Shown: positions 10,400 through 38,298 of the stretch, in pieces
Numbering within the stretch: position 1 is the stretch's first letter
Layout: the number at the start of each line of letters is the position of its first letter
NCBI GenBank assembly: GCA_025284135.1
Contig: GCA_025284135.1_3646.1
Strand: one strand, 5' to 3'
Length of the DNA stretch: 64,000 nucleotides
Origin: a phage
Notes under the pieces: generated by a model
Seen by the model: only the letters and a program-made list of their open reading frames with translations
Database searches by the model: none
What the model was told of the DNA's origin: nothing
Translations under genes and position numbers: made by a program

Positions 10400-11776
10400 A
10401 TGCCATATTTAGATAAGGTGGTAGATGTTACAGTTAACCTCGGAACCCAGCCTATTGACACTGTAGGTTTCGAAACTCCCCTGTTCATCGCTATCCACAA
10501 CAACTTTACTGAGCGAGCTCGCGTATATGCGGAGCTGGATCAGATGGTGGAAGATGGTTTCGCACAAGGCTCTGCAGCGTATGAGTTTGCAGCAAAAGCT
10601 TTTGGTGGTGTATTCCCTCCACAATACGTTATGATCGGCAGACAGGCCAAAGAAAAGACCACTGTAGATTTTAAAGGTATTGCTGCCGCAGCTGATACCG
10701 ATGTCGTAATGACTATTGCAAAAGGTAGCTACAATACTTCTTTGATAGTGCCTATCTCTGGTGGAACAGGTGCAACTCAGATTGCAGAGTCAATGAAGAC
10801 TAAAATTGAAGCAGATGATAGCTTGAACGATATCACTGTAGAGGCTGCTGAAGGTGTTCTCACCATCACTGGTAACTGCACTGTTGGTTATCATACTGGT
10901 AACTACACAATCAAAAATATCGCCAATGCTGAAAAACCTTCTACAGTAGTTGATAAGATCAATGCTGAGCGTGACAATTGGTACTTCCTGTGCCATGAAG
11001 ACCACACCGACATTGAAGCATGTGCCAAGTGGGCTCAGGCTAACTATAAGCTGCATGTCTACTCTACTGCAGAAGATGTGACTGGCAAAGATAATAACAT
11101 CGCCACCAAACTGATGGCTGCACAGTATGACAGTGTCGGCATGTACGATCCTCGTGCTGATAAAGATTTTCCAGAGGGTGGTATCGTAGGCGCTATGGCA
11201 TCCAACGATCCGTCTTACGGTGACAGCTTGCACTTAAAACAGATGCCGGGTGTGATTGCACCATCTCTGACTTTAACTCAGCGCATGGCGATTTGGGAAA
11301 ACCACGTTAACTTCTATAGAATGATTAACGGTGTTGGTGCTTTCTGGGAAGGTAAGTGTGCTTCAGGTCAGTATGCAGACGCTATTCGTTTTGCACACTG
11401 GATCAAGTTCAGATCTGAAGAATCTATGTTTGGGTACATGCATCGCCGCTCCAACATGGGTTTAAGCATGAAGATGTCTGATGATGATCTTCCGGTTATC
11501 AAGTCTGTCTTGATGAACAACCCAATCAACACTGGCATTAAGAATGGTGCGATCCTGACAGGTTTCGACGAAGACAATAATGTATTCTACGACCCGATCA
11601 TTACAGTTCCTAAACGTGCAGAAATCCCAACTAATCAGTTGGCTGCTCGTGTTCTGGAAGGTGTGAAAGTAGAACTGGTGTATAACAACGCCCTGCACTT
11701 CGTTCGTATCCGGATCAACGTCCTTCTGGACAAAGTTGGTTCTAAATCCACCAATGCTGTTGCAATGACTGAATAA
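10400..11776 (+). CDS. tail sheath protein (putative)
   Basis: 458 aa; followed by tube-sized gene, frameshifted chaperone and tape measure (canonical contractile-tail order); C-terminal segment MINGVGAFWEGKCASGQYADAIRFAHWIKFRSE resembles the conserved sheath C-terminal motif; host-optimised codons. Confidence 0.6.
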   Translation: MPYLDKVVDVTVNLGTQPIDTVGFETPLFIAIHNNFTERARVYAELDQMVEDGFAQGSAAYEFAAKAFGGVFPPQYVMIGRQAKEKTTVDFKGIAAAADTDVVMTIAKGSYNTSLIVPISGGTGATQIAESMKTKIEADDSLNDITVEAAEGVLTITGNCTVGYHTGNYTIKNIANAEKPSTVVDKINAERDNWYFLCHEDHTDIEACAKWAQANYKLHVYSTAEDVTGKDNNIATKLMAAQYDSVGMYDPRADKDFPEGGIVGAMASNDPSYGDSLHLKQMPGVIAPSLTLTQRMAIWENHVNFYRMINGVGAFWEGKCASGQYADAIRFAHWIKFRSEESMFGYMHRRSNMGLSMKMSDDDLPVIKSVLMNNPINTGIKNGAILTGFDEDNNVFYDPIITVPKRAEIPTNQLAARVLEGVKVELVYNNALHFVRIRINVLLDKVGSKSTNAVAMTE

Positions 11777-11786
11777 GGAAGCCTAG

Positions 11787-12260
11787 ATGGAAACTCAAAT
11801 TTTAACTCCTTATGCGTATGACCCTAAAAAGGTCAAACTGTATCTGATGCAGCAGCGTGTCACTGGCTTCGCTGCTGACACCAAGATTGTTGTTTCAAGA
11901 AACGAAGACAACATTTATCCTCACGTCGGCGTGGATGGTGAAATGTCTGCAGCTCTGTCCCGTAACCAATCTGGTGTTATGACTGTATCTTTGCAGAACA
12001 CTTCTGTATGGAACGCTTACCTTTCCGACTGGCAGAAACAGGCATCGATTACTGGCCTGGTATTCTTCCCGGTTCTGCTGGAAGGTAGCCAGGGCCCTGG
12101 TATTTCCACAATCGGTTGGATCCAGAAACAGCCTGACCTGACTTACGGAACCGAAGTAGGTCAACTGGACTGGGATATCGGTATTCTGGATGCATGGCTC
12201 AACCGTGATAACATCACTGGTGCTCTTACTGGCCTCGCAGGTCTTGCAGGTATTATCTAA
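11787..12260 (+). CDS. tail tube protein (putative)
   Basis: 157 aa; position between sheath and chaperone genes; host-optimised codons; followed by terminator. Confidence 0.5.
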   Translation: METQILTPYAYDPKKVKLYLMQQRVTGFAADTKIVVSRNEDNIYPHVGVDGEMSAALSRNQSGVMTVSLQNTSVWNAYLSDWQKQASITGLVFFPVLLEGSQGPGISTIGWIQKQPDLTYGTEVGQLDWDIGILDAWLNRDNITGALTGLAGLAGII

Positions 12261-12277
12261 GGGCACACTTTAGCATA

Positions 12278-12310
12278 AGCCTCACCTTCGGGTGGGGCTT
12301 TTTGCTTTTT
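12278..12310 (+). terminator. intrinsic terminator (UUCG tetraloop)
   Basis: AGCCTCACC-TTCG-GGTGGGGCT stem-loop followed by TTTTGCTTTTT. Confidence 0.7.
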
Positions 12311-12423: not shown

Positions 12424-12891
12424 ATGGCTATAAACTTTAGACCTACAACAGAGATTGATTTAGCAGGGCACAACTTTGTGATCACCCACTGGGGACCGAT
12501 GAAAGCAATGAAAAACATGCCTAAAATCGGTAAGATTGTGGCTGTTCCGCTAGGTGCTATCGGTGGATCTATTATCTCAGGCGGTCAGAATATGGCAGAG
12601 GTACTTCCTACTGCTCTGGCTTACCTGTTCCAAGAACTTGATGATAACTCTATTGAAGAGTTATTTAAAATCTTGTTCGAAGATATTACCGTGGATGGTG
12701 TGGATAAGCTTAACCCGGATGTTGTGTTTGCAGGACATCTGCTGGAGATGATTAAGCTGGCAGGTAAGGTTCTGGAGGTTAACTACGGCTGTTTTTTCAC
12801 ACAAGACGGTTTAGGAAGCCTTCTGGAGATGTTACAGCAGATGGGTATGATTCAGCAGGTGAACAACCTGGATCAGACTCCGGAAGAGTAG
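12424..12891 (+). CDS. tail assembly chaperone (gpG/gpE-like, frame-0 product)
   Basis: 155 aa; between tube and tape measure genes; contains slippery heptamer T_TTT_TTC near its 3' end with an open -1 frame continuing to 13157. Confidence 0.6.
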   Translation: MAINFRPTTEIDLAGHNFVITHWGPMKAMKNMPKIGKIVAVPLGAIGGSIISGGQNMAEVLPTALAYLFQELDDNSIEELFKILFEDITVDGVDKLNPDVVFAGHLLEMIKLAGKVLEVNYGCFFTQDGLGSLLEMLQQMGMIQQVNNLDQTPEE

Positions 12892-13157
12892 GAATAAGCA
12901 AGGTTGTTGTGAGGGCCAGTGAGTGGGCAGCTAAGAACAGTTCACTCAACTGGTTCGACTTTCTTTGGTGCAGGGTGCTCAAGAATTTCAAAGGGGAAAA
13001 TTTTGAATCGCTAAATCTTGCAGATATGGCGTATTTCCTGAAGCTATGTGAGTATCTTGATATCGAAGAATTCCTAGATACCGTCCAAAACAGGGAAATG
13101 GAGCGGGAGCAGAAGGCTGCCGCAGCTGCTGCGAAAGCTAAGCGCAGGAGAGGATAA
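12424..13157 (+). CDS. tail assembly chaperone, predicted -1 programmed frameshift fusion product (gpGT/gpE+E'-like)
   Basis: -1 frame is open from 12783 to 13157 and overlaps the 3' end of the upstream ORF; slippery site T TTT TTC at 12792-12798 in the correct zero frame; conserved position upstream of tape measure gene. Confidence 0.5.
12792..12798 (+). other. candidate -1 ribosomal frameshift slippery heptamer (T_TTT_TTC)
   Basis: X_XXY_YYZ heptamer in frame of ORF 12424-12891 (codons TTT TTC = FF of ...NYGCFFTQ...). Confidence 0.5.
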
Positions 13158-13160
13158 TCT

Positions 13161-13211: not shown

Positions 13212-15548
13212 ATGGCTACAAACAAAATAGTTGCCACAACAGTCAACAAGATTGGCTTTGAGATAGAGAACTCCTCCTACAAAAAAGCTGTAGAGAAAAT
13301 TCGCAGTATTGGGAGGGAGTTCAGGAAACTGGGCGAGGATTTTAACTCAGCCAACCCCATGAGTAGATGGCAGGCAGTGGCGGTTAAAACTCAGCAGACA
13401 ATGCAACGTGTTGCCAGACAACAATCTCAAGCAAATGCTAAACTGCACAGGGAGAGCGTTGCTCAGGCCAAGAAAGAGGCTGCAGTAAAGGCTGCAATAG
13501 AGCGTAGGGAGAATGCAAGACGTAGGCAAGCTGTAGGCAATCTTACCGCCAAAAACCCAGAGATGGCTAGGATGCGTAAGTTCTACCAGCAGCAAGCTAA
13601 AGAGGCTAAAAAAGCTGCCAAATCTGCACCAGTATCCTATGGGGGTTATAAGGCACCTAAGGCAAGAGTTCTTGCTAACGCCAAGTCTTTCAGATATATT
13701 CCAGGCAACCCGAACATGGGTGGGGTGGCTTCAGATCCTAATCTTGTGAAAGCCCAGACCGCTGCCATGAATCGTTATCATAGACAGCTAAGAAGAGACA
13801 GTAAAGCTGGTATGGATAATAGGCTTATGTCGGATCGTGAGGCAAGGAGAACCCACCTCTACAACTCCGCGATAAGACTTTCTGCCAAGTATGGGGCCGG
13901 ATTCCGTGGAAGCTTGCCAGGATACTCAGAGTTAGAGTCTAGGTTTGCTCGCGGGGAGATGAAAAAGTCAACCTTTAACGCCCACCTGTCAGCTCTGCAG
14001 TCTGGATTTAAAAGCGCCACCAGCCAAACGCTTACACTAGGCGATGCCATGAGAGACTTACGTAGATCTGTTATTAATGCAACAGCTGCGTATACAGCTT
14101 TTTCTGGATTTGCTGCGGTTAACAGATCCGGTCACATGATGGAGGGGGCAAGTGCTGCTCTTACTGCTGTTACTGGAGATCCAAACAAAGCCAACAGTGA
14201 GGTTGCGTTTGTCCAGCAAGAGGCTATGCGTCTTGGTTTTGATCTCAAATCTGGTCTTCAAGGTTACGCCCAGATGTCGGTAAACGCCAAAAACCAGATG
14301 ACAAATCAGGAAGTGCATGAGCTGTTTTCTGCATACTCCCAGTATGCTGCTGCTTATGGTGCTGATGAGGTAAAATATCAGCGCGGTATCATGGCAATCC
14401 AGCAGATGCTTGGCAAGGGACAAGTAATGTCCGAGGAACTGAAGCAACAGCTTGCTGAAGCATTACCTGGTGCATACGAACCTTTTATCAAGGCCACCAA
14501 AGAGGCTTTTGGTCTTTCTGAACTCTCCATGGATCAGTTCATGGACATGATGAAGAAAGGTGAGGTTAAAACAGCCAAGATCATGAAGTATGTGGCTAAG
14601 TACATGAACGAGGCATCTGCAGCTGGTTATGAAAGAATGCAGAAGTCTAACGTGCTGGCAGAAAACAGACTGAAAACCTTCATCGAACTGACTCGTCAGA
14701 AACTGTTCACCCGTTGGTCTGACGAACTGACAGAGTTCTATTATACACTGATCCGCACTGGTGAGACTCTGCAATTTGTATGGGATGCCTCTGGTGATTT
14801 TGTTAGCGGGTTTGTGAGAGGCCTTAACTGGGTAGTTGGTGAACTAAACAACACCATAGTCAAGATCCGCATGTTTTTCCTTGAATGGGGGATTAAATGG
14901 GGATTCATAACAGCTAAGACGAAGGAATATTCTGAAGAGCTTCATGACACCTTTAGCTATGCTAAATGGGCAGGGTTTGCTGCTGCCATCATGCTGGTCG
15001 TCAACGCTCTAACAAAAGGTTTTGTCATGGCATCCATGCTTGTAAAAACCTTTAAATTCCTTAACTCTCTAAGAGGTGCAGCTGGAGCAGCAGGTGCCGC
15101 TACTGCAGAAGGATCTGGTGGTGGCGCTCCGGCAGGAAAAGGTGGGGGTGGCCTCAAGACACCTGGTGGCAAAGTTGGTCTGCTCGGTAAGCTGGGCATT
15201 ATCGGCACAATACTAAGCGCCGGGGAATTATTTAATGACCGTTACAACCCGCTAAGTGAAAGAAATCAGCAGCTGGATACTATCAGCGATATGATTCGCA
15301 AAGATATCATATCGGGAGGTAACGGGTTTGTTAATCCTTTGGACACCTTACCTGGTGGGACTCTTCCGTTGCCAGGTGGCCCTGGTTTTGCTTCTCAATT
15401 AAGAACTATGGAAATGCTACCTTTAGAGATCAGTGATGGGAAAATCACGATTTCAATAGATGAGGGCGAGTTTAACAAAATATTTGATGCAAAACTTGAG
15501 TGGGAGAACAATAAAGATATCAACTTCATGTCTACCGACCTTTGGTAA
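13212..15548 (+). CDS. tail tape measure protein
   Basis: 778 aa; Ala/Lys/Gln-rich helical N-terminal half, hydrophobic segment and Gly-rich stretch (GAAGAAGAATAEGSGGGAPAGKGGGG) near C-terminus; position after frameshifted chaperone. Confidence 0.8.
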   Translation: MATNKIVATTVNKIGFEIENSSYKKAVEKIRSIGREFRKLGEDFNSANPMSRWQAVAVKTQQTMQRVARQQSQANAKLHRESVAQAKKEAAVKAAIERRENARRRQAVGNLTAKNPEMARMRKFYQQQAKEAKKAAKSAPVSYGGYKAPKARVLANAKSFRYIPGNPNMGGVASDPNLVKAQTAAMNRYHRQLRRDSKAGMDNRLMSDREARRTHLYNSAIRLSAKYGAGFRGSLPGYSELESRFARGEMKKSTFNAHLSALQSGFKSATSQTLTLGDAMRDLRRSVINATAAYTAFSGFAAVNRSGHMMEGASAALTAVTGDPNKANSEVAFVQQEAMRLGFDLKSGLQGYAQMSVNAKNQMTNQEVHELFSAYSQYAAAYGADEVKYQRGIMAIQQMLGKGQVMSEELKQQLAEALPGAYEPFIKATKEAFGLSELSMDQFMDMMKKGEVKTAKIMKYVAKYMNEASAAGYERMQKSNVLAENRLKTFIELTRQKLFTRWSDELTEFYYTLIRTGETLQFVWDASGDFVSGFVRGLNWVVGELNNTIVKIRMFFLEWGIKWGFITAKTKEYSEELHDTFSYAKWAGFAAAIMLVVNALTKGFVMASMLVKTFKFLNSLRGAAGAAGAATAEGSGGGAPAGKGGGGLKTPGGKVGLLGKLGIIGTILSAGELFNDRYNPLSERNQQLDTISDMIRKDIISGGNGFVNPLDTLPGGTLPLPGGPGFASQLRTMEMLPLEISDGKITISIDEGEFNKIFDAKLEWENNKDINFMSTDLW

Positions 15549-15559
15549 TAAACTGTGCA

Positions 15560-15585
15560 GGGGGCTCCGGGCCCCCTTTATTTTA
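15560..15585 (+). terminator. intrinsic terminator
   Basis: GGGGGC-TCCGG-GCCCCC hairpin followed by TTTATTTTA. Confidence 0.7.
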
Positions 15586-15626: not shown

Positions 15627-16538
15627 ATGGTATCGGAGTGTCCTGGAGAGGTTATGCCAAGCAATATAGTTGATGAAAAAGACCTGTACAAGCCTCAAGA
15701 GGTTAAATCTCCAAAGGCTGAAAAGGCAGAGCAGCAAACTGAAAGCGATGTAAAGTACACTATGTTTGTCAGCGGTCTTAACTATGGTGGTCGCAATACG
15801 GAGATGAAGGGTAAAAACTTTACTAACGATCTTGCCATTATCTTCGACCAGGTTGAGAACTATTCTTTCAAACATTCTGTTGATAAGACTGATTTTGCAG
15901 TGGAAGATAAATCTACCCTGTCAGACCACGCTGTAATTAAAGATGGTGTATTTTCTTTTACTGGTAGGGTAAATACATCACCACATATAATCTATGAGCA
16001 AAACTACATTGACAGGAATACTGACTCTAAAAACCCTGCAGCATCTATGCGACCGGGCGCTGCACTGGAGGCTTTGACTGAAATCATTAATAAGCGCCAA
16101 TTGGTTTCTTTGGTTACCGAGGAAAGACTCCTTGAGAACTACATTATAACCAGCCTTTCTGCCAGCAAGTCTGTTGGCGAAGGTGCTGCAATGGTTTTTG
16201 ATGTAGAGCTTACAGAGTTCCGCACATTCTACTTGAACAAGGTTGTTAATGCAACTGTATACAGCAATCCTAAGAAAGTAGGCAAGACCCAACAAAAAGG
16301 TGCTGTCAACGACTGTAAGAATGGTAGTAACGTAGGTAACAAGAGGGACACAGGAGCATTCGCAGACACTGCATCCACAAACGCTGCAGAGGAGTGGCAG
16401 CCATACAAATCTATGATGTGGACAGATGAAAACGGTGTTACCCAATCGGCTGCGGATTGGTATTATCAGGAATATGGAAGACCTTCTACCATAGTCCCAT
16501 CTGAGCAGGGAAACTACAACAAAGTTAACGGGAAATAA
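15627..16538 (+). CDS. tail/baseplate-associated protein (hypothetical)
   Basis: 303 aa from track; alternative start at ATG 15654 with GGAGAGG SD; position after tape measure (as Mu gp43 / P2 gpU); no motif support. Confidence 0.3.
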   Translation: MVSECPGEVMPSNIVDEKDLYKPQEVKSPKAEKAEQQTESDVKYTMFVSGLNYGGRNTEMKGKNFTNDLAIIFDQVENYSFKHSVDKTDFAVEDKSTLSDHAVIKDGVFSFTGRVNTSPHIIYEQNYIDRNTDSKNPAASMRPGAALEALTEIINKRQLVSLVTEERLLENYIITSLSASKSVGEGAAMVFDVELTEFRTFYLNKVVNATVYSNPKKVGKTQQKGAVNDCKNGSNVGNKRDTGAFADTASTNAAEEWQPYKSMMWTDENGVTQSAADWYYQEYGRPSTIVPSEQGNYNKVNGK

Positions 16539-16550: not shown

Positions 16551-16931
16551 ATGGAGCTTAAAGATTGGTGCATAATCACCTTTGTGTGGGACATTGACGG
16601 CTTTCCTGATCAAACCATGCGTGTTGTTTTAGACAACGAAACGTATGAAATGCGTATGCAATGGAATGAGAGGGATGAGTCTTGGTGGTTATCTCTTGGT
16701 CCAGTAGGTGACAGCCCTTTAGTAACCAGAAAAGTAACAGCTTGTCAAGATATCTTAGACGGACTGCATTATAGAGACGATTTACCGAAAGGTAGATTGA
16801 TGGCACTGTCGTTTAAAGATGATCAATATTGGGGCAGGGTTGGAAGATACAACCTTGGAGCAAGATCCGAGCTACAACTTGTATACGGCACCCCAGTTGA
16901 TCTTTACAAGGAACAGCAAGGGTTAGAATAA
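16551..16931 (+). CDS. hypothetical tail protein
   Basis: 126 aa; positional inference. Confidence 0.3.
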   Translation: MELKDWCIITFVWDIDGFPDQTMRVVLDNETYEMRMQWNERDESWWLSLGPVGDSPLVTRKVTACQDILDGLHYRDDLPKGRLMALSFKDDQYWGRVGRYNLGARSELQLVYGTPVDLYKEQQGLE

Positions 16932-18612: not shown

Positions 18613-18624
18613 TAGAGGGCTTTC

Positions 18625-19341: not shown

Positions 19342-19350
19342 GGAGAAATC

Positions 19351-20019: not shown

Positions 20020-20020
20020 G

Positions 20021-22618: not shown

Positions 22619-22622
22619 CATA

Positions 22623-22644: not shown

Positions 22645-22654
22645 AGGAGAAAGA

Positions 22655-26467: not shown

Positions 26468-26474
26468 CTGTTTT

Positions 26475-26504
26475 GCCCTCGCTTCGGCGGGGGCTTTTTG
26501 TTTG
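26475..26504 (+). terminator. intrinsic terminator (UUCG tetraloop)
   Basis: GCCCTCGC-TTCG-GCGGGGGC followed by TTTTT. Confidence 0.75.
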
Positions 26505-26506
26505 TA

Positions 26507-26535
26507 TTGCGTATTAACTCAAAATCTGGTAAAAT
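26507..26535 (+). promoter_or_regulatory. sigma70-type promoter, extended -10 (TTGCGT-N17-TGgTAAAAT)
   Basis: Immediately downstream of terminator; shared GGTAAAATA motif. Confidence 0.5.
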
Positions 26536-26566
26536 AACTATCATGATTGTTTAACCTGGAGGCACA

Positions 26567-31100: not shown

Positions 31101-32280
31101 AGGGCAGATTACAACCAACACCAATAATATTACTGGGTTGGACAATAAGCTGACTCAGACTAAGAAAGATTTGTCTGCGAATATTTCTGAAACTAATAAC
31201 GCCACTGTTGATCTGATTAACGGCACAGCGTCAGCTATTCGTCAAGAACTTGCTGTTGCTAAGCAGGAGATCATTGATGGTGTTGGTGATGTGTCCGAGA
31301 TCAGGGCTGCAGTAGCTACAACAGCTAAGGCTGTAACCGACTTGGAGGGTAAAGTAAGTGCTCAATGGGGCACAAAAATACAGGTAGACTCCGCAGGGAA
31401 TAAATATGTTGCAGGTATCCAGTTGGGGATGGAAGGGTCTGGGGGCCAAGTTCAATCCTACTTCATGGTTAGTGCAAACAATTTTGCGGTATACAACCCT
31501 GGCAATGGAACAGCAACCCTTGCTTTTGCAATCAAGAACAACCAAGCGTTCTTGAAAGACGCTTTTATAGAGAACGGGACGATTTCATCTGCCAAGATCG
31601 CACAAGAAATCTCGTCAAACAACTACGATGGCAACGGGTACCATAAATACGGTTGGTATATTAACAAGAACGGGCACGCCCAATTTATGGATGTGTGGGT
31701 GAAAGGCAACATCAACGCTAGTTCTGGTAACTTCACAGGGGCAGTTAACGCCACTAGTGGTACCTTCCGTGGGGATGTTTATGCCAATAATGGTAGCTTT
31801 AGAGGCACCATAGATGCAACCGGAGGTACCTTCCGTGGTCGTGTAGAAGCTTCTGTTATCCGTGCTAACCAGTTCGAAGGTGCAATTGTTGCGCACAGGA
31901 CTTATGGGGATTGTGCTCCAGTATATAACTCCCGGCAAAGGGTTTGCCGTTGGAGGTGGAGATACGTAGATAACGTTTCAGGTCAGGGTAAGAACGTAAC
32001 ATTCTTCTTTAAACTGAATGGTACTCTTGCCAGCTCCCAGCTCAACGTTTGGATAGCCGGACATCAAATCCTTGCAGGTAAGAAGTACGGAAACGACAAC
32101 AACGGTATGTGTGCGGTAGGGATAACAGGTCTTGGTGAACAAACCATAGATATTGTTGTTGAAATCTACACACCATGGTCAACGTCTTCTGTAACAGGGG
32201 TCGCAATATCCTGTCCTACTGTTGTGGTAAGCCGTTCTAACTCAAGCTTCCAGGGACCTTGGAACGAGTCTCACGACTAA
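28135..32280 (+). CDS. central tail fibre / tip attachment protein, lambda gpJ-like, with inserted coiled-coil repeat array
   Basis: 1381 aa; N-terminal HPLEGIEDILIDGNPIS and AALVILDYLRTYLKCPDETINWESFKEAANICDEAV, FN3-like GYFAITLIPH...YYWYIRTTNAFGSSQFVE, and C-terminal KYVAGIQLGMEGSGGQVQSYFMVSANNFAVYNPGNG...AFLKDAFI all parallel recalled lambda gpJ segments. Confidence 0.75.
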   Translation: MPIAMIDNIVASARSSSYDWNASKAALADSLNTVTTRTLDKIFEGNKSYRSQQDRQKLLRSSAAPCSVVYGKTRTSGLLAFLEQDRDKTLHCAIVLANHPLEGIEDILIDGNPISSYGDLVSWELHNDRKTSDPFMGTHCPSWSPDMIGRGISWLRASFRFDPNKFPFGLPNVTLVKVGKKCYDPRISKEVYTNNAALVILDYLRTYLKCPDETINWESFKEAANICDEAVKNADGTSERRYTINGEFDMDEAPASIMAEMLKACGADLSYVAGKYGLLVGAYYGPATMTLSEDCVCGEVKIYPEASFDKRSNTITGRFTSPTKGYSETDFPSVFVPEWIEKDGERKIIDIDYRFVTSPYQAQRVSAIFLRRARAGRIIEVTCNMRGFKFKPGRYVTMNLPSIGIVGQEMRVLEWEFTKKGGVKVKLRQDAKEWNDATGQLPDSGDVDIPISPSGVAQPQNFRYSVLQAGEITHGVLAWDNVGTYAQNIVQVRKNGEIVWTAQTVEQFVRVEGLTKGSYTATVVATSYKGGVSPEAYCEFNIQAPEAPVSVEVKQGYFAITLIPHSRDLASVSTQYDFWTSGMTRLPDTSDATVTSNATRMGVGSTWTSEGLQNDKVYYWYIRTTNAFGSSQFVECAARCYTSIEDLMPQIDAEFKKTETYKELMSTLDSSIEEVENRVTELNRYMDGRVDEAFDHMEGEFSRVDKLYAQLGDRVGIFIQETHDNFQDVNGTLTTLDQKLVATQNKFADDLSKESGKLASLIQTTNKATTDLLNQKTEALDEKIVSTRGELEDALAQESSELNSLIVSTNKTTTDLLNRKTEALDNKLTATKGELTNNLQNESAKLSSLIESTNKSTTDLLNKKTEALDEKLVAAQGELTEQIGDVEKGYLAGDKSLEGKLNTQRSELDASILSTNQATVDLLNRTSETLDQKISQTNATVSKNYTTLDGKINTAKSDLNTLISTTNKATTDLLNQKTAALTEQLTTAKGQITTNTNNITGLDNKLTQTKKDLSANISETNNATVDLINGTASAIRQELAVAKQEIIDGVGDVSEIRAAVATTAKAVTDLEGKVSAQWGTKIQVDSAGNKYVAGIQLGMEGSGGQVQSYFMVSANNFAVYNPGNGTATLAFAIKNNQAFLKDAFIENGTISSAKIAQEISSNNYDGNGYHKYGWYINKNGHAQFMDVWVKGNINASSGNFTGAVNATSGTFRGDVYANNGSFRGTIDATGGTFRGRVEASVIRANQFEGAIVAHRTYGDCAPVYNSRQRVCRWRWRYVDNVSGQGKNVTFFFKLNGTLASSQLNVWIAGHQILAGKKYGNDNNGMCAVGITGLGEQTIDIVVEIYTPWSTSSVTGVAISCPTVVVSRSNSSFQGPWNESHD
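30394..31266 (+). repeat. in-frame array of ~6 diverged ~132-nt (44-aa) coiled-coil repeats inside J-like gene
   Basis: Protein repeats of the form ES(G/S/A)KL(A/N/S)SLIxSTNKxTTDLLNxKTEALDxKL; first three units exactly 132 nt apart (30394, 30526, 30658); DNA diverged mostly at synonymous positions. Confidence 0.7.
31720..31851 (+). repeat. four tandem 33-nt (11-aa) Gly-rich repeats inside J-like gene
   Basis: SSGNFTGAVNA / TSGTFRGDVYA / NNGSFRGTIDA / TGGTFRGRVEA. Confidence 0.7.
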
Positions 32281-32286
32281 CCTTTA

Positions 32287-32315
32287 AAGCCCCGCTTCGG
32301 CGGGGTTTATTTTTA
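32287..32315 (+). terminator. intrinsic terminator (UUCG tetraloop)
   Basis: CCCCGC-TTCG-GCGGGG followed by TTTATTTTTAT. Confidence 0.8.
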
Positions 32316-32323
32316 TGCTCAGA

Positions 32324-32352
32324 TTGACTATTGTTACAAAATTTGGTAAAAT
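32324..32352 (+). promoter_or_regulatory. sigma70-type promoter, extended -10 (TTGACT-N17-TGgTAAAAT)
   Basis: Hexamers with 17-nt spacer directly after terminator. Confidence 0.55.
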
Positions 32353-32385
32353 ACCTTGTAGAGATTTTCATACCGGAGGAGTGAC

Positions 32386-33876
32386 GTGGCTAAGTATGGA
32401 TTGACAGAGGCTGGTTTCGTTATACCAACCCTAAATGACCTAATCGTTGAAACTAAGCAAAGCCTGATCCGTGCTTTTGGCGAAAACTTCAACGTACAGA
32501 GTAACTCCGTTGCAGATAAGCTGACCACTATCTTCAACGAGCGAGAGTATCAACTTATTCTTATGGCAGCATCTGTATATGCATCACAGACGCTGTATGG
32601 GGCAGAAGGTATTTACCTAGATGAGCTTCTTGGAAGACAGGGTATTTACCGAAGAGGCCGTTCTAAATCATCAGGTACCTGCCAGTTGACAATCAACACA
32701 ACTGTGCCGTACAATATGATTTATGATTCCAAAACTTATACGCTGGACAGTGGCAACTTTGTTCTTAGCAACGATGTGCAAGTAGCAGGGAATCTTATTG
32801 CTCACAGAATAAATGCTCCAGACCTAAGGATTGGGAAATACAACTTCCAAATTACCAACCAGACAGATGGAAGTATCAAAACAAAAAGCCTGGTTTTAAC
32901 AGATAAGTCTCTGGACTCTTCTGATTTGCCAAGCTTTTACGGAGAGATTAAGCAATTCATTGTCGATAATACAACTCTGTTGAACGACGATTTGATTCAA
33001 ATCGATATGTTGACAGGAACGTTGTGGATAGGGTACAATTCGAATCTTGATCAGGTTGGACTTAATAGTAGGGTAGATTTCAGAGTATCCCCGATTGTAG
33101 GGGAAAGAACTATCACTCTAGATGTTATCGCTAACGAGGCTGGTGAGCTGTCAAGGGAGGCAGAAACCGTGACAACAATGTCGCCTACCCCCAGCGGATT
33201 TATTAAGCTTACCAACCGAGAAAGATTCAATGAGGGAAGGGATGTTGAAAAAGACTCAGAGTATCGCTTAAGAGCTTCCAGCACAAAACAGTTAACATCG
33301 AAGGCTACCCGTCCTGCAATCCTTAGCGCTGTAAGCGAGGTAAAAGGTGTTGAGAAAGTGAGAGTGTTCTCCAACAACACCGATAAAACTGATGCTAAAG
33401 GTATACCTCCTTACAAGTTCCAAGTGGTTGTGTTTGGTGGTGCAACGGAGGACATTTGCCAAGCACTTTACCAAACTATAGCCTGTACGAACAGGACTTA
33501 TGGTAATATTTTCTACGATATCGCTACATCTGACGGTCAAACTGAAAGAATTTATTACTCCAGGGCAAATACCTACCGCCTAGATGTAAGAATTACCTAT
33601 TCCGGCGCTGCGCTTTCCACAACCGAAAAAGATGCCATTGTAGAGGCTCTTTTGCAGGTTGTTAACGGACTTGATGTTGCAGATACGTTGTACAATATCC
33701 AATTGGTCGGTGCTGCATCCGCTGCTGTGTCGATAGGTAGATTTAATAGACTGGTAATTCAAGTTAAACCAGTAGGAGCTTCTGATGAAGCTTACACGAC
33801 AAACGATATTGTTGCGAACATGACCGAGGTGTTTGACCTCGACGAAAGTAATATAACTTTCCAACAAACTATTTAA
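32386..33876 (+). CDS. baseplate wedge protein, Baseplate_J-like (P2 gpJ / Mu gp47-like, putative)
   Basis: 496 aa; GTG start with GGAGG SD; DSEYRLRA motif matching the D-x-D-Y-R-L-R signature recalled from P2 gpJ, followed by alternating beta-strand-like segments. Confidence 0.5.
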   Translation: MAKYGLTEAGFVIPTLNDLIVETKQSLIRAFGENFNVQSNSVADKLTTIFNEREYQLILMAASVYASQTLYGAEGIYLDELLGRQGIYRRGRSKSSGTCQLTINTTVPYNMIYDSKTYTLDSGNFVLSNDVQVAGNLIAHRINAPDLRIGKYNFQITNQTDGSIKTKSLVLTDKSLDSSDLPSFYGEIKQFIVDNTTLLNDDLIQIDMLTGTLWIGYNSNLDQVGLNSRVDFRVSPIVGERTITLDVIANEAGELSREAETVTTMSPTPSGFIKLTNRERFNEGRDVEKDSEYRLRASSTKQLTSKATRPAILSAVSEVKGVEKVRVFSNNTDKTDAKGIPPYKFQVVVFGGATEDICQALYQTIACTNRTYGNIFYDIATSDGQTERIYYSRANTYRLDVRITYSGAALSTTEKDAIVEALLQVVNGLDVADTLYNIQLVGAASAAVSIGRFNRLVIQVKPVGASDEAYTTNDIVANMTEVFDLDESNITFQQTI

Positions 33877-33887: not shown

Positions 33888-34574
33888 ATGGCAGAGATTA
33901 AGTCGGATGTTAACCACATCCACACTCTGCCAGATTTTGTTCAGGGAGGTCTTGACTACCTACCTGGAGATTTTCTGGCTGAGAAGGTTAATTTAGTCAC
34001 ATTCTTAACCGTATACCTTAAAAGGTTGGAGGATGTTGATAAGATGCTGGTAGGTTTGGCTGAAGGAAGATTGCTTAACAATGCCAGCGGAAGATACCTT
34101 GACGAAGTTGGTAATCAACTTGGTATTCTTAGGAATGGACTTTCAGATGCTGATTTTCGTGCCACACTAATTATTCAGCAGGCCGCAGCATCAAGGGGCG
34201 GGACTCGCGAAGATGTCATCTCCACCTTGCGACAATTGTTCGGAAGAGACAATTTCGATACGTGGAAAGGAGACAACTTCAGGTTTGACATAAATATTAG
34301 AAAAACTTGCTTTGACATATTGCAGTCTATCGATCAGATCTTAGATATGCTACCATTACCTTGTCATTTGCGTCTTACAGAATCGCAAGGGCAAGCTTTT
34401 GGTTTTGAAGGGGACTCTACAGCTCTTGGCTTCGGATCAGTGTGGGAAGAAAACCAATTCGGAGTTGGTGGGCTGGCTACTTTGCTATATGTTCCTGACG
34501 TAAGACCTGATTGGGACACCACAACCATTTATTGTGAAAGTATTACAGTAAACGCAACTAGACAGGAGGGTTAA
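33888..34574 (+). CDS. baseplate protein, XkdU / P2 gpI-like (putative)
   Basis: 228 aa; N-terminal YLPGDFLAEKVNLVTFLTVYLKRLEDVDKMLVGLAEGRLL resembles the tail protein I/XkdU family motif; position directly after J-like wedge gene. Confidence 0.45.
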   Translation: MAEIKSDVNHIHTLPDFVQGGLDYLPGDFLAEKVNLVTFLTVYLKRLEDVDKMLVGLAEGRLLNNASGRYLDEVGNQLGILRNGLSDADFRATLIIQQAAASRGGTREDVISTLRQLFGRDNFDTWKGDNFRFDINIRKTCFDILQSIDQILDMLPLPCHLRLTESQGQAFGFEGDSTALGFGSVWEENQFGVGGLATLLYVPDVRPDWDTTTIYCESITVNATRQEG

Positions 34575-36646
34575 TGGCAACAGCTGTTTTTAAACCTTAC
34601 CGTGATTACTCTACAATGGCTGCACAGTTTCATTACCGAACAGTTCAGGATACTGCCGTTCCTGGTAGGGATTATAATCATGTTGAGGGCGATGTAACTA
34701 TCCCAATTGGGGCAACCAGTATTGAAATCCCAGTGGAAATTGTTGACAAATTACCCAACAGGTTACCAAGAAGCTTCTTTATGGAGTTTTCATCAAAATC
34801 TCAAGGGGTGATGATTGGGACACAAAGGGCAAAATGTACAATAGTTTCAGATGAGAATCTTGACAGGATATCTTGGGATACTGTTGAGGAGAGAATGTTT
34901 CACCCAAGATATTGGGTTACAAATACTCAGCAGACTGAAAGTACCTGTATTGTTGCAGATGACAACTGTTGTATTAACCGTTTAGTGTCAAGAACATATG
35001 GAGGTATGGCTGGGTGCATTTGGGAAACAGTTGACAAGTATGACCATTTCGGTATTGGGTTTGATGATCACTATGAGATGAGAAACACCAAGCTTTGGTT
35101 CAGAATGTCAATAACCAATGCCAGCAACTTCTCCACCCCTGAAAAGATGATTATGACTGTAGACCTTGTCGATGGCACAATCATCTATGTTCCTTTAGCT
35201 CAATATGCTGTCAGCATCTCAGAGGATAAGAATGTTGCAGAAATTCATATTGATTTTGAGGACTGCGTCGGGATGGACCAGAACAACAACATGATGGGTG
35301 TTGATCCTCGGCAGGTTAGAAGGATTTTAATACCACTCATGCCTAAAGACTGGGTAAGTAATAGCACAGACCCGAGAACGGAAAATGTAGAGTGTGAGTT
35401 GCGCCTAGATTTGCTTCAGCCAGACACAGGCTGGAAAATGATGCAACTTAACAATATTCAGGTGAGAGAGCACGACGTTGGGATCTGCACCGCATATGAC
35501 GATATGTGGAACGTATCCCCTTTAAGGGTGTTGAACAATATCAAGCGTCTGGGCTATACCGGAACCATAAACCATTATGTTGGTATGAGTCATTATTATG
35601 ACTACACATGGTCAGGAACTCAATGGTCTATAAACAGAACAGGAGCGCTAAACGCTGCAGCTTATAAATGGCATGATGATTTTATGTACAATGCCAAACG
35701 ACATAACTTCGACGTTATGCAATCTGTAAGTTTTGAGCTTTTCAGCGATGCCTGCCCGTTGGAATGGACCCAAAGAGACTGGAACGATAACTACGCTAAA
35801 ACAGGGTATACACCTTGTAGCTACCTCCTGTCTCCAACCATTGAAGAGGGTATGAATTTCCTTACTGCAGTATTTAAGAATTTTGCATCAGCCGCTATGA
35901 GAAACAACCTGCCAGTGATTATGCAGGTTGGTGAACCGTGGTGGTGGTACAATACCGATACTCGTAGACCTTGTATTTATGATTACCCTACAAAACAGGC
36001 GTTTTATGATGAGACAGGCGAGTATGCATTAGATATTGGGACTATTGACGATCCTAAAACTGGCGGTGTTTACGATAAGTATGTAGCATTTTGTCGTGGT
36101 AAGCTTGGCGCTCGTATTGCGGCTATTTCAAAGGCAATAAAGGCACACGCTGCATCAGCTCAGATGACAGCTCTGCTGTTTTTCCCAACCATTATGGAAA
36201 CCGAGCTTACGCAAAAGCTTAACCTTGCTGACCAATATAAAAAGGAAGCAGGTGCTCTTGATTTCTTCTGCACCGAGTGCTACGATTGGGTGATGCAGGG
36301 AGGTATTGAAAAGGCAAAAGAGTCTGTAAACATACCTATCGTTAAGTTAGGTTGGCAACCGTCTGAAATACAATACCTTGCAGGGTTCGTTCCTAGTAAA
36401 GAGCTTGCTCCGGTATATGGCTACGACCCAACCAGGAATTACCAAGAATTTTTATGGAGATGTATTTGCGGAAACATGGCAACTATAGAGTATAGATACC
36501 CTGAGGTAAAACAGTATGTGTGGGCATACCCGCAAGTAATGTCTGACAGCATCACTGTTACCGCTAGAGATTCTACCGTGCTTCATATGGGGCAGGTTGC
36601 TCTGAAAGGGTATGTAGAAGATGTTGTCCCGCCAGACTTCTCATAA
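34574..36646 (+). CDS. baseplate-associated protein with N-terminal Calx-beta-like segment
   Basis: 690 aa; N-terminal AVPGRDYNHVEGDVTIPIGATSIEIPVEIVD resembles the Calx-beta motif; Trp/Tyr-rich remainder; function unknown. Confidence 0.3.
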   Translation: MATAVFKPYRDYSTMAAQFHYRTVQDTAVPGRDYNHVEGDVTIPIGATSIEIPVEIVDKLPNRLPRSFFMEFSSKSQGVMIGTQRAKCTIVSDENLDRISWDTVEERMFHPRYWVTNTQQTESTCIVADDNCCINRLVSRTYGGMAGCIWETVDKYDHFGIGFDDHYEMRNTKLWFRMSITNASNFSTPEKMIMTVDLVDGTIIYVPLAQYAVSISEDKNVAEIHIDFEDCVGMDQNNNMMGVDPRQVRRILIPLMPKDWVSNSTDPRTENVECELRLDLLQPDTGWKMMQLNNIQVREHDVGICTAYDDMWNVSPLRVLNNIKRLGYTGTINHYVGMSHYYDYTWSGTQWSINRTGALNAAAYKWHDDFMYNAKRHNFDVMQSVSFELFSDACPLEWTQRDWNDNYAKTGYTPCSYLLSPTIEEGMNFLTAVFKNFASAAMRNNLPVIMQVGEPWWWYNTDTRRPCIYDYPTKQAFYDETGEYALDIGTIDDPKTGGVYDKYVAFCRGKLGARIAAISKAIKAHAASAQMTALLFFPTIMETELTQKLNLADQYKKEAGALDFFCTECYDWVMQGGIEKAKESVNIPIVKLGWQPSEIQYLAGFVPSKELAPVYGYDPTRNYQEFLWRCICGNMATIEYRYPEVKQYVWAYPQVMSDSITVTARDSTVLHMGQVALKGYVEDVVPPDFS

Positions 36647-36658
36647 TCAGGAGATAAA

Positions 36659-37699
36659 ATGTCAAAACCTAGTTTTCCATTAGAGATTTGGGCAGAGGAG
36701 GATCAGGTTCTGCCTAACACCCACAGACAGAACAGGCTACGCCCGATTGATGATTTGTGGAGAAAAGGTTGGGATCTTGGTCAAAAGCCCTCATGTGAAG
36801 AACTTAACTATATTTTCAATATGCTCGGAACTTGGGCAAAATACATTGCTGACGAGCAGATCCCCGCTCAAGAAGGCCGTTATCTGGTACGTGATAATAA
36901 CTTGAGTGATCTTTTGAACATCCCTGTTGCCCGTAGAAACCTTGGGATTATTACCAAGGAAGAGGCAGACGCCAGGTATGTAAAAGTTACAGGTGATACA
37001 ATGACAGGCCCATTGGGTTTGCAACGTATCAACTTTAAGGCTGCCGAGACAGATAAGGCTTGGATAGAGACAACTATTGGCCCAGATAAGACAACTCTCG
37101 ACTTCGGGTTAAGTGATAATATTGGGTCGTTTGATGATGGTGGTACATCTACAGTAGATGCGTTTCGTTGGAGATTCCAGCCAACTCAGCCGGATATTAA
37201 TCCAGAGTTCACTTTGATGTACCTTAACGCGATCACGGCGAACCGTGCGCTGTTGAAAGTGGTAGGCAATGTTGAAGTTGTCGATAACATGAGGTGCAAT
37301 AACCTTACTATCAGCAATACAGCAACATTCACCAACTGTAATGTGGCTAGTCAGTTGACGGCTGGGTCAGTATATGTTAATGGTGGTGCAAGTTGTGACA
37401 GCATGGTTGTAAGAAGTCAGCACTGTGTTGTCGGTAACAGAAATGTGGTTCGCTCTGTGAACGGAGTGACGGCTAACGGTAACGGTGATGTAACGATCAC
37501 TATCCCGCAGACAGGTGTGCAAGACATCAGAATCGGTGCAAGACTTGTTGACGGCGTTTCTGAATCTCCAATTCGCAACGGCTACGTTGTCACAGGCTGG
37601 CATTTCGGTGACAAAAAAGAGATGCGTGGTTCAACCTACTGGGCAGGACCTTTACAAAAACTTGTAAATGGTCAATGGATCACTGTTAATTATGCATAG
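36659..37699 (+). CDS. tail fibre protein (P2 gpH / Mu S-type C-terminus), paralog A
   Basis: 346 aa; C-terminus YWAGPLQKLVNGQWITVNYA parallels P2 gpH C-terminus (...RPIQKYINGTWYNVAQV); followed by a Tfa-type chaperone gene; paralog at 38714. Confidence 0.7.
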   Translation: MSKPSFPLEIWAEEDQVLPNTHRQNRLRPIDDLWRKGWDLGQKPSCEELNYIFNMLGTWAKYIADEQIPAQEGRYLVRDNNLSDLLNIPVARRNLGIITKEEADARYVKVTGDTMTGPLGLQRINFKAAETDKAWIETTIGPDKTTLDFGLSDNIGSFDDGGTSTVDAFRWRFQPTQPDINPEFTLMYLNAITANRALLKVVGNVEVVDNMRCNNLTISNTATFTNCNVASQLTAGSVYVNGGASCDSMVVRSQHCVVGNRNVVRSVNGVTANGNGDVTITIPQTGVQDIRIGARLVDGVSESPIRNGYVVTGWHFGDKKEMRGSTYWAGPLQKLVNGQWITVNYA

Positions 37700-37713
37700 A
37701 TCGGAGGACTAGC

Positions 37714-38298
37714 ATGAAAATACTTCAAGAGTTTAAACTTTACCAACCGGGATCTGGCGAATACCACGCCAACAAGGAAACCAAAGAGCTGACCCCTCAA
37801 GAGGTTGAGGATTACACCGCATACACTGGGTATTTTTTACGTAATGATGATGGCGATTGGTATGTGCAGTCACGAACATTACGACAAGAAAATCCGGGTT
37901 GTATCTTCCTACTTGTTGACGAGAAGGGAATTCTTAAGACATCTACAGAAGAACCTGATGCCTTATGGCCTGCTCCAGGTCTTCGTGTGGTTATCGCCAA
38001 AAAAGAAGAGGTACCAGAAAACATTATGCTTCACCACGACGCTTTGCGTTTAGTTGGTGATGAATTTGTCACAGATAATGAATTCTTTGTTCAACAGGCA
38101 GAGGGTGTCATAGAGACAGAACTTGCTTGGGCTACTGCTAGAATTGGTGCCTATCAAGACATGATTGACCTTGAATATGATCTTACTGATGACCAGAAAC
38201 GTAACATCAGGGATTTGAAAATGTACAGGGTAAAACTTCTTGAAATAGATACATCTAAAGCCCCTGACATTTTCTTCCCGGAGCGACCTACCCTCTAA
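37714..38298 (+). CDS. tail fibre assembly chaperone (Tfa-like)
   Basis: 194 aa; C-terminal motif LKMYRVKLLEIDTSKAPDIFFPERP matches the Tfa signature (W/Y-R-x-x-L-x-x-D-x-S-x-APDI-x-W/F-P). Confidence 0.75.
   Translation: MKILQEFKLYQPGSGEYHANKETKELTPQEVEDYTAYTGYFLRNDDGDWYVQSRTLRQENPGCIFLLVDEKGILKTSTEEPDALWPAPGLRVVIAKKEEVPENIMLHHDALRLVGDEFVTDNEFFVQQAEGVIETELAWATARIGAYQDMIDLEYDLTDDQKRNIRDLKMYRVKLLEIDTSKAPDIFFPERPTL

Follow-up and report, generated by a model that had tools for sequence, protein, structure and literature searches.

A tail-tip cassette of siphophage type within a contractile-tail gene cluster

The DNA analysed here, hereafter the window, is a 64,000-nucleotide stretch of phage sequence (contig GCA_025284135.1_3646.1 of assembly GCA_025284135.1). 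Our subject is a group of four genes at positions 26567-32280, designated the tip cassette, which lies among the genes of a contractile tail. The open reading frames (ORFs) on which an initial annotation had been based were all recovered, with the same limits and on the + strand. That annotation had seen a set of siphovirus-type tip genes inside a series of contractile-baseplate genes ordered as in Mu, and this claim is supported by Pfam and PHROGs assignments, PDB matches and gene order. The cassette forms the last 5.7 kb of a 12.9-kb interruption (19351-32280) between two baseplate genes, those for the sheath initiator and wedge 2, and encodes proteins of 196, 183, 141 and 1381 amino acids (aa). 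The first gene (26567-27157) encodes a distal tail protein (Dit) of the T5 pb9 type, which we call Dit2; the second (27159-27710), a gpL-like N-terminal domain of a split hub; the third (27710-28135), a DUF6950 protein in the position of gpK; and the fourth (28135-32280), a gpJ-type hub and central-fibre protein.

A 15-kb query from the region matched 124 phage records, including V5/rV5, BP9 and several phages of the BASEL collection, and 115 of the 124 covered at least 80% of the query at 92 to 98% identity. Phage V5 was 94.5% identical over 95% of the query and BP9 98% identical, and phage EduardKellenberger corresponds to the window gene for gene. Because 115 rV5-type records cover at least 80% of the query, the window is assigned, on nucleotide identity and gene order, to the genus Vequintavirus, as an rV5-like Escherichia coli myophage. 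As the query spans the arrangement, the same records rule out an assembly artefact or chimera.

In the siphophage Seurat (Queuovirinae), the genes for the tape measure protein (TMP), Dit (194 aa), a tail protein (194 aa), a hypothetical protein (138 aa) and central tail fibre J (1040 aa) follow one another in this order. The four cassette proteins match Seurat gp16-gp19, again in order, with 32, 40, 45 and 50% identity. The same four genes, similarly ordered and of similar sizes, are found elsewhere in the Queuovirinae, among Nonagvirus relatives, and the match takes in the hub, the immunoglobulin-like (Ig) domains and the tail-tip beta-helix. In PHROGs, the first cassette gene falls under 'distal tail protein' and the last under 'central tail fiber J' (phrog_31, E = 1.5e-161).

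A scan of IMG/VR with the alignment of the L-like family returned 255 relatives, and the contig context was examined for the best 80 of these 255. Three were Vequintavirus contigs at 99 to 100% identity, and the other 77 were at most 40% identical and lay on contigs nearly all of 61 kb or less. All four cassette genes occurred in the same order in 74 of these 77 non-Vequintavirus contigs, and in none of the 77 was an rV5-type tail gene found within 10 kb of the cassette. In one of them, contig L057, the cassette stands in its native setting: the genes for portal, protease, major head protein, neck protein, major tail protein, chaperone and TMP come first, then the cassette and a fibre gene, and there is no sheath gene. 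The ORF ending directly 5' of Dit was TMP-sized in 53 of 58 siphophage-like contigs (median 1038 aa). The window differs in this respect: Dit2 does not directly follow a TMP gene, but a gene for a fibre with an S74 domain and then a terminator, so that the cassette is without a tape measure of its own. Thus, whereas in the Queuovirinae the cassette stands directly 3' of TMP and ends a non-contractile tail, in the window it stands 3' of a fibre gene and terminator in a contractile cluster.

We conclude from these sequence comparisons that 26567-32280 represents a complete tip module of a non-contractile phage within contractile-baseplate genes. Its layout of ring, split hub, P60-like protein and J is that of the tips of lambda, T1, Seurat and the gene transfer agent (GTA) type, and the closest versions are those of Seurat and T5. 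The module had initially been labelled lambda-type. What stands of that label is the functional order (ring, hub piece, P60-like protein, J), shared with lambda M-L-K-I-J except that the gpI gene is not in the window; lambda gpL and gpM are structural matches, and J shares Pfam domains and a homologous hub. The proteins themselves, however, resemble the Seurat/T5/T1 type more than they do the lambda sequence families: Dit2 carries a second domain, and there was no Pfam signal for Phage_min_tail or Phage_tail_L. The tips of T5 and DT57C (Dit pb9, hub pb3) are about 11 to 17% identical in sequence to the window proteins, and the T5 hub is a single chain of 949 aa, whereas that of the window is split into L-like and J-like proteins, as in lambda.

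The three small proteins of the cassette

Homologue searches with single proteins in word-indexed databases returned almost solely close relatives. Single-sequence PDB searches gave no matches for any of the three small proteins, and in Pfam searches with E values as high as 10, Phage_min_tail, Phage_tail_L and NLPC_P60 were all absent from the matches. Alignments of the families to lambda M and L by hhalign gave no signal.

Dit2 has the two-domain fold of pb9 and a profile similarity to it. It had been described as gpM-like, which holds as a structural match of the ring type but not as membership of the gpM family Phage_min_tail (PF05939), the protein being a two-domain Dit of the T5 pb9 type. 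In a tblastn search with the Dit2 gene, all matches beyond the close (at least 80%) rV5-type ones were below 60% identity, and those listed include Dit genes of siphophages of 40 to 60 kb. Among 1.84 billion cluster representatives, one close full-length cluster was found (95%), and the sole other match above 47% was a 74-aa fragment (78%).

For the L-like protein, a profile of 38 homologues matched residues 38-176 of T5 pb3 (E = 5e-5), and PF09931, the N-terminal attachment domain of baseplate hubs, was recognized in 7 of the 38 family members. An AlphaFold2 model of moderate confidence (predicted local distance difference test score 74) matched the N-terminus of T5/DT57C pb3 in Foldseek (E about 1e-6, TM-score 0.62) and lambda gpL (8iyk_L; E = 8e-5, TM-score 0.56), as well as one chain each in entries for the GTA virion, T1, JBD30, Chi and R4C. 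On this model, the protein has the tube-like fold of gpL and hub N-termini. The earlier description as gpL-like is therefore right for the fold. It does not extend to family membership, as neither the window protein nor the 38 family members matched Phage_tail_L (PF05100) in Pfam, and hhalign gave no signal with that family. Lambda gpL has a C-terminal iron-sulfur cluster site made of four cysteines; such a site is impossible in the 183-aa L-like protein, because it contains only two cysteines, C32 and C90.

The third protein is assigned by Pfam to DUF6950 (E = 3e-33). It had been described as resembling gpK (NlpC/P60-like), of which at most a weak and remote similarity remains. The DUF6950 homologues matched NLPC_P60 weakly (E = 0.06 to 0.09), the family aligned to lambda gpK by hhalign with 31% probability over 72 columns, and its profile gave only chance-level matches in the PDB. 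The D-C motif is invariant in the alignment and the Q-x-G-D motif shared, but there is no histidine at the catalytic position. The protein, of 141 aa, aligns to the C-terminal part of gpK only; the MPN/JAMM domain is absent, and the HSHP region of gpK has no counterpart. From its sequence, it is remotely K-like at best and probably non-catalytic. It also evolves much faster than its neighbours: between Vequintavirus lineages (compared with contig L091, 11145-11570) it is 57% identical, as against 84 to 87% for Dit2 and the L-like protein, which retain the near-invariant residues of their families.

The J-like protein

The call of a gpJ-like protein was upheld. The 1381-aa product passes the Pfam cut-offs for Phage_Tail_Tip (E = 4e-39) and Ig_J_second (E = 1e-30), but not for Phage-tail_3 (E = 0.098). 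In the PDB it matches lambda gpJ (E = 1.5e-27) over residues 666-844 and the C-terminal fibre, and the profile of its hub family aligned to gpJ 218-481 by hhalign (91% probability, E = 1e-6). The 50% identity to Seurat J begins at residue 48, and hence includes the hub. Both the tip beta-helix with Ig domains and the N-terminal hub of a gpJ of the COG4733 type are thus present. The context is not that of such a gene, which stands 3' of TMP, Dit and hub in a non-contractile operon, whereas this one lies within a contractile-tail cluster.

Identity to Seurat J varies along the protein: 30% in the N-terminal segment (residues 1-47), 58% in the hub (48-460), 63% in the Ig and fibronectin type III domains (461-650), 38% over 89 alignable residues in the coiled coil (651-1058), 66% in the tail-tip beta-helix (1059-1230) and 14% in the C-terminal domain (1231-1381). 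Compared with the J proteins of the Queuovirinae, the window protein therefore has an unrelated C-terminal domain; its shaft is about 320 aa longer, and no locus for a receptor-binding protein follows the gene. The C-terminal domain was found in 117 rV5-type records only, at 80 to 100% identity.

In the shaft (window 30412-31086), a repeat search found at least five degenerate units of 132 nucleotides (44 aa), unlike Tandem Repeats Finder, which found no repeats in the gene. Length variants of 1199, 1279 and 1381 aa exist, and all their differences lie within the shaft, in blocks of 88, 47 and fewer residues. Relative to the 1279 aa of rV5, the window protein has two additional 44-aa repeats and a 14-aa block (measured against the 1279-aa orthologue of EduardKellenberger). 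With some 408 residues, the coiled coil would reach a length of roughly 60 nm. Occasional thin fibres of 70 nm, five to six and not one, are mentioned in the rV5 paper (PMC3606486), and we infer that the J-like shaft may correspond to such a fibre.

The contractile-tail core

The tail cluster of the window contains the core genes of a phiTE/phi92/Mu-type contractile tail in their usual order: sheath, tube, tail assembly chaperone, TMP, tube initiator, plug, hub, spike, sheath initiator, wedge 2 and wedge 1. The sheath gene (10400-11776) matches DUF3383 (E = 1e-11), is annotated as sheath in a BASEL phage, and is 52 to 54% identical to the sheath-position gene of Mydovirus, Certrevirus and UPEC06. 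It is followed by the tube gene (11787-12260; Pfam KPP10_Orf10) and by the chaperone gene with its -1 frameshift extension (12424-13157; Phage_TAC_15, E = 2e-23), in which a canonical slippery sequence, T_TTT_TTC, is found at 12792 in the proper phase, the -1 frame having no stop codon between 12783 and 13157. The TMP gene (13212-15548; TMP_3, E = 4e-18) ends before a terminator at 15559-15577. Next come the contractile-tail tube initiator (15627-16538; Dit_like, E = 7e-23; 'tail tube initiator' in BASEL phages), the baseplate plug (16551-16931; Pam3_gp18, E = 3e-18) and the baseplate hub (16931-17935; phrog_196 'baseplate hub', E = 2e-83), which is 54 to 58% identical to the annotated hubs of Mydovirus KNP2 and Certrevirus PBES 02. 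The central spike (17935-18612; PF18352, E = 1e-9) has a His-rich apex motif and ends in HTHSCPDGETSGPH. In phi92, six copies of the plug, gp136, surround the hub, and the spike holds an iron ion (PMC13450770).

The sheath initiator gene, of the gp25/W type (18625-19341), forms the upstream edge of the interruption. It matches two 'sheath initiator' entries of phiTE in the PDB (E = 5e-61 and 4e-55), phi92 gp139 and phrog_120, and PF10934 was matched on an orthologue. The protein has 238 aa and the phiTE match spans residues 1-171, which leaves about 65 extra C-terminal residues in Vequintavirus; judged from the alignment, this extension is a candidate docking site for extra fibres. At the downstream edge lies the gene for wedge 2 (32386-33876), a Baseplate_J (Mu gp47-like) protein with the sequence DSEYRLRA, whose PDB matches are phiTE 'wedge 2' (E = 1e-157) and phi92 gp145. 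It is followed by wedge 1 (gpI-like; 33888-34574; phrog_4056), which matches phiTE 'wedge 1' (E = 6e-67) and phi92 gp146.

The initial calls of sheath, tube, frameshifted chaperone, TMP, spike with HTHSCPDGETSGPH, baseplate-J protein with DSEYRLRA, gpI-like protein and, further downstream, Tfa were borne out by Pfam, PHROGs and PDB matches. The profile searches do not reduce the region to a single conventional tail type: the sheath, spike, baseplate-J and J calls hold by Pfam, hhalign, PHROGs and PDB matches, and L by its family-profile match to T5 pb3 and Foldseek, with no hhalign signal to gpL; K is weak.

The core order was checked against PBES 02, UPEC06 and KP13-16, and in the window it is broken between sheath initiator and wedge 2. 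In local tblastn comparisons of all 25 window tail proteins, the core was shared at 25 to 80% identity with seven related myophages; its genes are common to Mydovirus, Certrevirus, UPEC06, Plateaulakevirus and phi92-like phages. The baseplates of phiTE (Certrevirus) and phi92 (Justusliebigvirus), known from cryo-electron microscopy (cryo-EM), contain homologues of tube initiator, plug, hub, spike, sheath initiator, wedge 1 and wedge 2. The contractile-tail core is a conserved baseplate of the phiTE/phi92 type. The genomes of close relatives of phiTE (PBES 02, of the same genus) and of phi92 (the phi92-like PaulScherrer) are without the tip cassette.

The junction between sheath initiator and wedge 2

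The tail clusters of the seven myophages were located by means of the wedge-2 protein. In PBES 02, which shares its genus with phiTE, whose baseplate is solved, the genes for sheath initiator and wedge 2 are direct neighbours; in UPEC06 and KP13-16 they are almost adjacent, with one ORF of 40 and of 93 codons between them, respectively. They also have consecutive locus tags in the published gene table of Septuagintavirus W70. Aeromonas phage 4L372D has a single gene there (713 aa), the Mydovirus phages KNP2 and AV124 have about 6.5 to 9.5 kb of fibre genes, and PaulScherrer about 8 kb of fibre genes. Since relatives carry between 0 and about 9.5 kb of fibre genes at this place, the junction tends to gather fibre genes in this phage group.

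In the window, three such genes precede the cassette, and all three had been correctly recognized at the outset, as Pfam and PHROGs matches confirm. A 222-aa anchor-domain fibre protein (19351-20019; Tail_spike_N, E = 2e-10; phrog_7760 tail fiber) is 43% identical to its homologue in PaulScherrer, and an 865-aa tail or fibre protein (20021-22618; phrog_2871 tail protein, 1182 bits) is 35% identical to the 958-aa lateral fibre protein of a phi92-like phage. The third is a 1270-aa fibre with a Tail_spike_N anchor and a Peptidase_S74 chaperone domain (22655-26467). The Tail_spike_N (TSP1/gp66) anchor of the 222-aa and 1270-aa proteins is that of the branched tailspikes of Ackermannviridae (CBA120 TSP1-4) and of G7C gp66, and on this domain assignment part of the inserted block follows the known logic by which a fibre docks on a fibre. 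The tip cassette differs in that it does not carry this anchor domain and brings its own ring and hub.

The S74 fibre is 31% identical over 290 aa to the side-fibre gene directly 3' of Seurat J (contig L002, 14051-15859), and it was also matched in 17 siphophage-like contigs. These similarities suggest that part of the S74 fibre may have arrived together with the cassette. In some genomes of a divergent Vequintavirus lineage (contig L090, 5121-9898), the fibre upstream of the cassette is a 1481-aa variant without S74, followed by a 110-aa ORF. Because this variant replaces the fibre there, the slot adjoining the cassette is evidently exchangeable.

Terminators, late promoters and retention of the cassette

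The cassette is bracketed by transcription signals on the + strand. Upstream are a terminator hairpin (26475-26494) and a late promoter motif (26521-26538), which correspond to t041 and P040 of rV5; downstream are a second hairpin (32287-32308) and a second motif (32338-32355), the latter corresponding to P036. The late promoters P040 and P036 and terminator t041 are listed for rV5 in Table S4 of PMC3606486. Three hairpins, after TMP (15559), the S74 fibre (26475) and the J-like gene (32287), rank with the strongest + strand terminators between 15 and 35 kb. The 18-nucleotide motif AAAATnTGGTAAAATAnC occurs exactly twice in the window, as against 0.06 copies expected, 29 nucleotides before the start of Dit2 and 31 before that of wedge 2. 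A generic sigma-70 scan was not above chance (36 sites compared to 33.3 expected). The terminator/promoter pairs first reported around the inserted genes are thus real and bracket the cassette, though the promoters are phage-specific late promoters instead of generic sigma-70 ones. From these signals we infer that the cassette would form a late transcription unit by itself.

Taken as one unit of about 65 nucleotides, terminator and promoter are repeated imperfectly (71 to 79% identity) and in direct orientation at the two ends of the cassette (26477-26539 and 32290-32356), and the same bracketing repeat is present in the divergent Vequintavirus lineage. At the uninterrupted junction of Certrevirus, there is one terminator and promoter unit before wedge 2. 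Because the repeat brackets the cassette in the window and the Certrevirus junction has a single unit, the sequences fit an insertion of the cassette at an intergenic terminator/promoter unit, with duplication of that unit.

The divergent lineage, known from contigs of up to 137 kb, has an identical layout with all four cassette ORFs intact. Its neighbouring tail genes are 72 to 79% identical to those of the window at the nucleotide level, and the DUF6950 gene 61%. Amino acid identities between the lineages are 84% for Dit2, 87% for the L-like protein, 57% for DUF6950 and 79% for the J-like protein. Synonymous sites are saturated, so that the ratio of nonsynonymous to synonymous divergence (dN/dS) could not be computed for several genes, and the argument relies on intactness together with dN. 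The latter is 0.08 to 0.39 for the cassette, comparable to the neighbouring baseplate genes. As the ORFs have stayed intact despite saturated synonymous divergence, with dN in this range, the sequences point to purifying selection on all four cassette genes.

These data bear on the idea that the cassette is a decaying or neutral passenger left by a past recombination, or a product of chimeric assembly. The lack of a tape measure of its own and the recombination-prone fibre locus would fit a remnant. However, the four ORFs are intact across saturated synonymous divergence behind a native late promoter, the orthologue of the J-like protein has been detected in virions (see below), and the identical layout is present in at least 115 independently sequenced genomes and in metagenomic contigs. 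We regard both versions as highly improbable, and have rejected them as effectively refuted by the intact ORFs and the at least 115 genomes.

Distribution and origin

None of the four cassette genes had a match in any of the seven related myophages in local tblastn searches of their tail loci. The N-terminal 655 aa of the J-like protein were found in 117 records at 95% identity or more, in none between 60 and 95%, and then in Queuovirinae siphophages at 59% or less. The matches listed below 60% are mostly records of about 40 to 85 kb, with no sister myophage among them. Wedge 2 was likewise found at 95% or more in 117 records, the same count as for the J-like C-terminal domain. Comparison of gene order had been proposed at the outset; made with rV5-type, phiTE-genus and phi92-like phages, it confirmed the core order and, among these, found the cassette in Vequintavirus alone. 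On these searches, the cassette is restricted to one genus among the myophages examined.

An enterobacterial siphophage lineage with affinity to the Queuovirinae would have been the source of the cassette, which would have reached Vequintavirus by horizontal transfer. The direction from siphophage to myophage is argued by parsimony, because very many siphophage lineages carry the genes, as against a single myophage genus whose sister genera have an empty junction.

Downstream fibre genes and other features of the window

Downstream of wedge 1, a 'gpH-like fibre' had been annotated. This is incorrect: the region encodes an N4 gp65-like (NCTSP) lateral fibre (34574-36646; TIM-barrel_NCTSP, E = 4e-80, and NCTSP_N) and a short tail fibre (36659-37699, as annotated in BASEL phages). 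They are followed by a Tfa chaperone (37714-38298; Caudo_TAP, E = 8e-12). The N4 gp65-like protein has been proposed to bind ECA/NGR (PMC8594841; also a 2026 receptor preprint), and the short fibre and its chaperone were related to Mu GpS and GpU (PMC8594841). A second short tail fibre gene, paralogous to the first, lies at 38711-39757, so that the two flank the Tfa gene, as already noted for such paralogues in the BASEL paper (PMC8594841); more large fibre genes (581 aa and 1874 aa) extend up to about 47.5 kb.

In the siphophage Halfdan (contig L003, 8592-11339), a 915-aa NCTSP protein is encoded within the tip cassette, in the order Dit-NCTSP-L-K-J. Over 375 aa, the NCTSP fibre of the window shares 30% identity with this protein, which hints that NCTSP proteins may be able to dock on tips of the Halfdan or window type.

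The GC content of the window is flat (about 0.43 to 0.47), and every gene between 7 and 47 kb lies on the + strand. The GC skew changes sign at about 47500-54300, and a block of minus-strand genes starts beyond the last fibre gene. No tRNA genes were found anywhere in the 64 kb. Eighteen GenBank records of 'Campylobacter phages' (within MG065644-MG065690) are about 94 to 95% identical to window 18000-33000, and 16 of them give C. jejuni as host; these are probably mislabelled or co-isolated coliphages.

Virion evidence

In rV5 and V5, the cassette orthologues are gp40 to gp37, about 94 to 99% identical and in the same gene order. For rV5 gp37, a relationship to COG4733 and to a Mu gp44-like hub domain was noted in 2013, and the protein was detected in virions by mass spectrometry (MS), with peptides from the hub region that include GYSETDFPSVFVPEWIEK (PMC3606486). 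The same peptide occurs in the J-like protein of the window. The tube protein gp52 and the S74 fibre gp41 were also detected in rV5 virions (PMC3606486).

GenBank and RefSeq phage records already label cassette genes 'distal tail protein' and 'central tail fiber J'. The arrangement, which the initial annotation had not recognized as known, is thus real as a siphophage tip within a contractile gene order, but it is the standard layout of a well-known and often isolated phage genus, whose genes are known and annotated singly. In the literature, we came across no account of gp40-gp37 as a whole siphophage tip module confined to one genus, and no paper that assigns the J-like protein a position in the virion. 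The reading of these genes as a single acquired and domesticated tip module without a place in phiTE or phi92 baseplates appears to be new. As for the fibres, the BASEL authors left unclear which genes form which of them (PMC8594841).

One possibility is that the J-like protein alone is structural, its hub domain being re-used for attachment to the baseplate, and that Dit2, the L-like protein and DUF6950 are assembly factors that are not retained. Lambda gpK is indeed an assembly factor not kept in the virion, and the much faster evolution of DUF6950 (57% identity as against 84 to 87%) agrees with such a role. Against this, the proteins of solved siphophage tips that Dit2 and the L-like protein match in structure are stable parts of the virion, and Dit2 and the L-like protein themselves keep the near-invariant residues of their families. 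Products gp38-40 were not among the 19 proteins identified in rV5 virions, which could be taken in its favour; however, hub, plug, tube initiator and wedge 1 likewise escaped detection in this MS (PMC3606486). Because only 19 proteins were seen and several core baseplate parts were missed, these data say nothing on gp38-40 in the virion. We consider an arrangement with J alone unlikely.

Proposed role of the cassette

The reading that we prefer, and judge probable, is that the cassette is an acquired siphophage tip module, expressed as its own late unit and assembled as an extra receptor-binding complex with its own mini-hub on the baseplate. Its products would assemble as in siphophages: a J trimer and an L-like trimer would form a pseudo-hexameric hub capped by a Dit hexamer, with the DUF6950 protein perhaps acting as assembly factor for this Dit6-L3-J3 complex. 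The result would be a self-contained 'mini tail tip' mounted on the baseplate as an additional receptor-binding appendage. The coiled-coil shaft of about 60 nm would give it reach, its length changing by whole 44-aa repeats, and the conserved, genus-specific C-terminal domain would bind the target and give it specificity. In this way, one more binding activity would be added to a multivalent adsorption apparatus. We favour a whole complex over a bare fibre because the ring and the hub piece have been kept under selection and not replaced by an anchor of the Tail_spike_N type.

More tentatively, and a little short of an even call, we propose that Vequintavirus virions carry complete tips of Dit hexamer, L-like trimer and J trimer on the contractile baseplate, either six at the periphery or one on the axis. 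To our knowledge, no other solved tail has such a complete grafted tip, and nothing comparable is present in the two baseplates examined, those of phiTE and phi92.

The axial position would correspond to a hybrid hub, in which the Dit2 ring and the L/J cone lie on the axis below the myophage hub and enclose the spike, J being a true central fibre; in that case, contraction could drive the spike through only once the cone had opened in the manner of T5 pb3. In their C6/C3 symmetry, ring and cone agree with the tail axis, their folds are those of coaxial tail-tip parts, and the retention of the whole Dit-hub set in place of a simple adaptor suggests that the ring interface is used. The RBPseg study also remarked on a Vequintavirinae fibre, which it did not place, with an N-terminal region of the kind common in central tail fibres (PMC12143355). 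However, the hub, spike and TMP genes are conserved with those of phiTE and phi92, in both of which the spike forms the distal end, and the window spike retains its His-rich apex motif. The RBPseg baseplate cryo-EM reported no on-axis cone, which should be its best-ordered feature (PMC12143355), and the five to six thin 70-nm fibres of rV5 are not the single one expected of a central fibre (PMC3606486). A coaxial hub is in our judgement unlikely, and peripheral attachment is favoured because the core is conserved with spike-tipped relatives, no axial cone was seen and electron microscopy shows several thin fibres, none of the three arguments being decisive.

Several points weigh against an acquired module that assembles as a peripheral tip. 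In a neighbour-joining tree of J hubs, the two Vequintavirus sequences form a long branch sister to 67 sampled sequences from enterobacterial siphophages and prophages, and are not nested in the Queuovirinae; Halfdan falls outside all others. A claim for a specific donor was dropped, since the tree did not nest Vequintavirus within the Queuovirinae. The relationship of the DUF6950 protein to gpK is weak. A Dit hexamer normally stacks on the tail tube, and the periphery of a baseplate offers it no obvious partner. The detection of gp37 in rV5, among 19 proteins in all, comes from five spectra, some of low quality (PMC3606486). Finally, in cryo-EM of two Vequintavirinae phages of the BASEL collection, density was seen for 3 of 9 annotated fibres and no J-like fibre was placed (PMC12143355).

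Implications

Tail modules are usually thought to be exchanged within one tail type, with fibres swapped at the tips. Here, a unit for the assembly of an entire tip, with its ring, split hub, assembly factor and central fibre, appears to have crossed from a non-contractile to a contractile tail, to have been wired to the recipient's late promoter, and to have been kept by selection across a widespread and therapeutically used genus. In the 'Swiss army knife' adsorption apparatus of rV5-type phages, the cassette would account for a component not yet placed, and its shaft of 44-aa repeats and its conserved tip domain may serve as handles for host-range engineering. If the complex assembles as predicted, it raises the questions of what a Dit ring binds without a tube end, and how a baseplate accepts a foreign hub. 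If this is true, a whole tip assembly would be movable between tail types and re-usable as an adsorption organelle.

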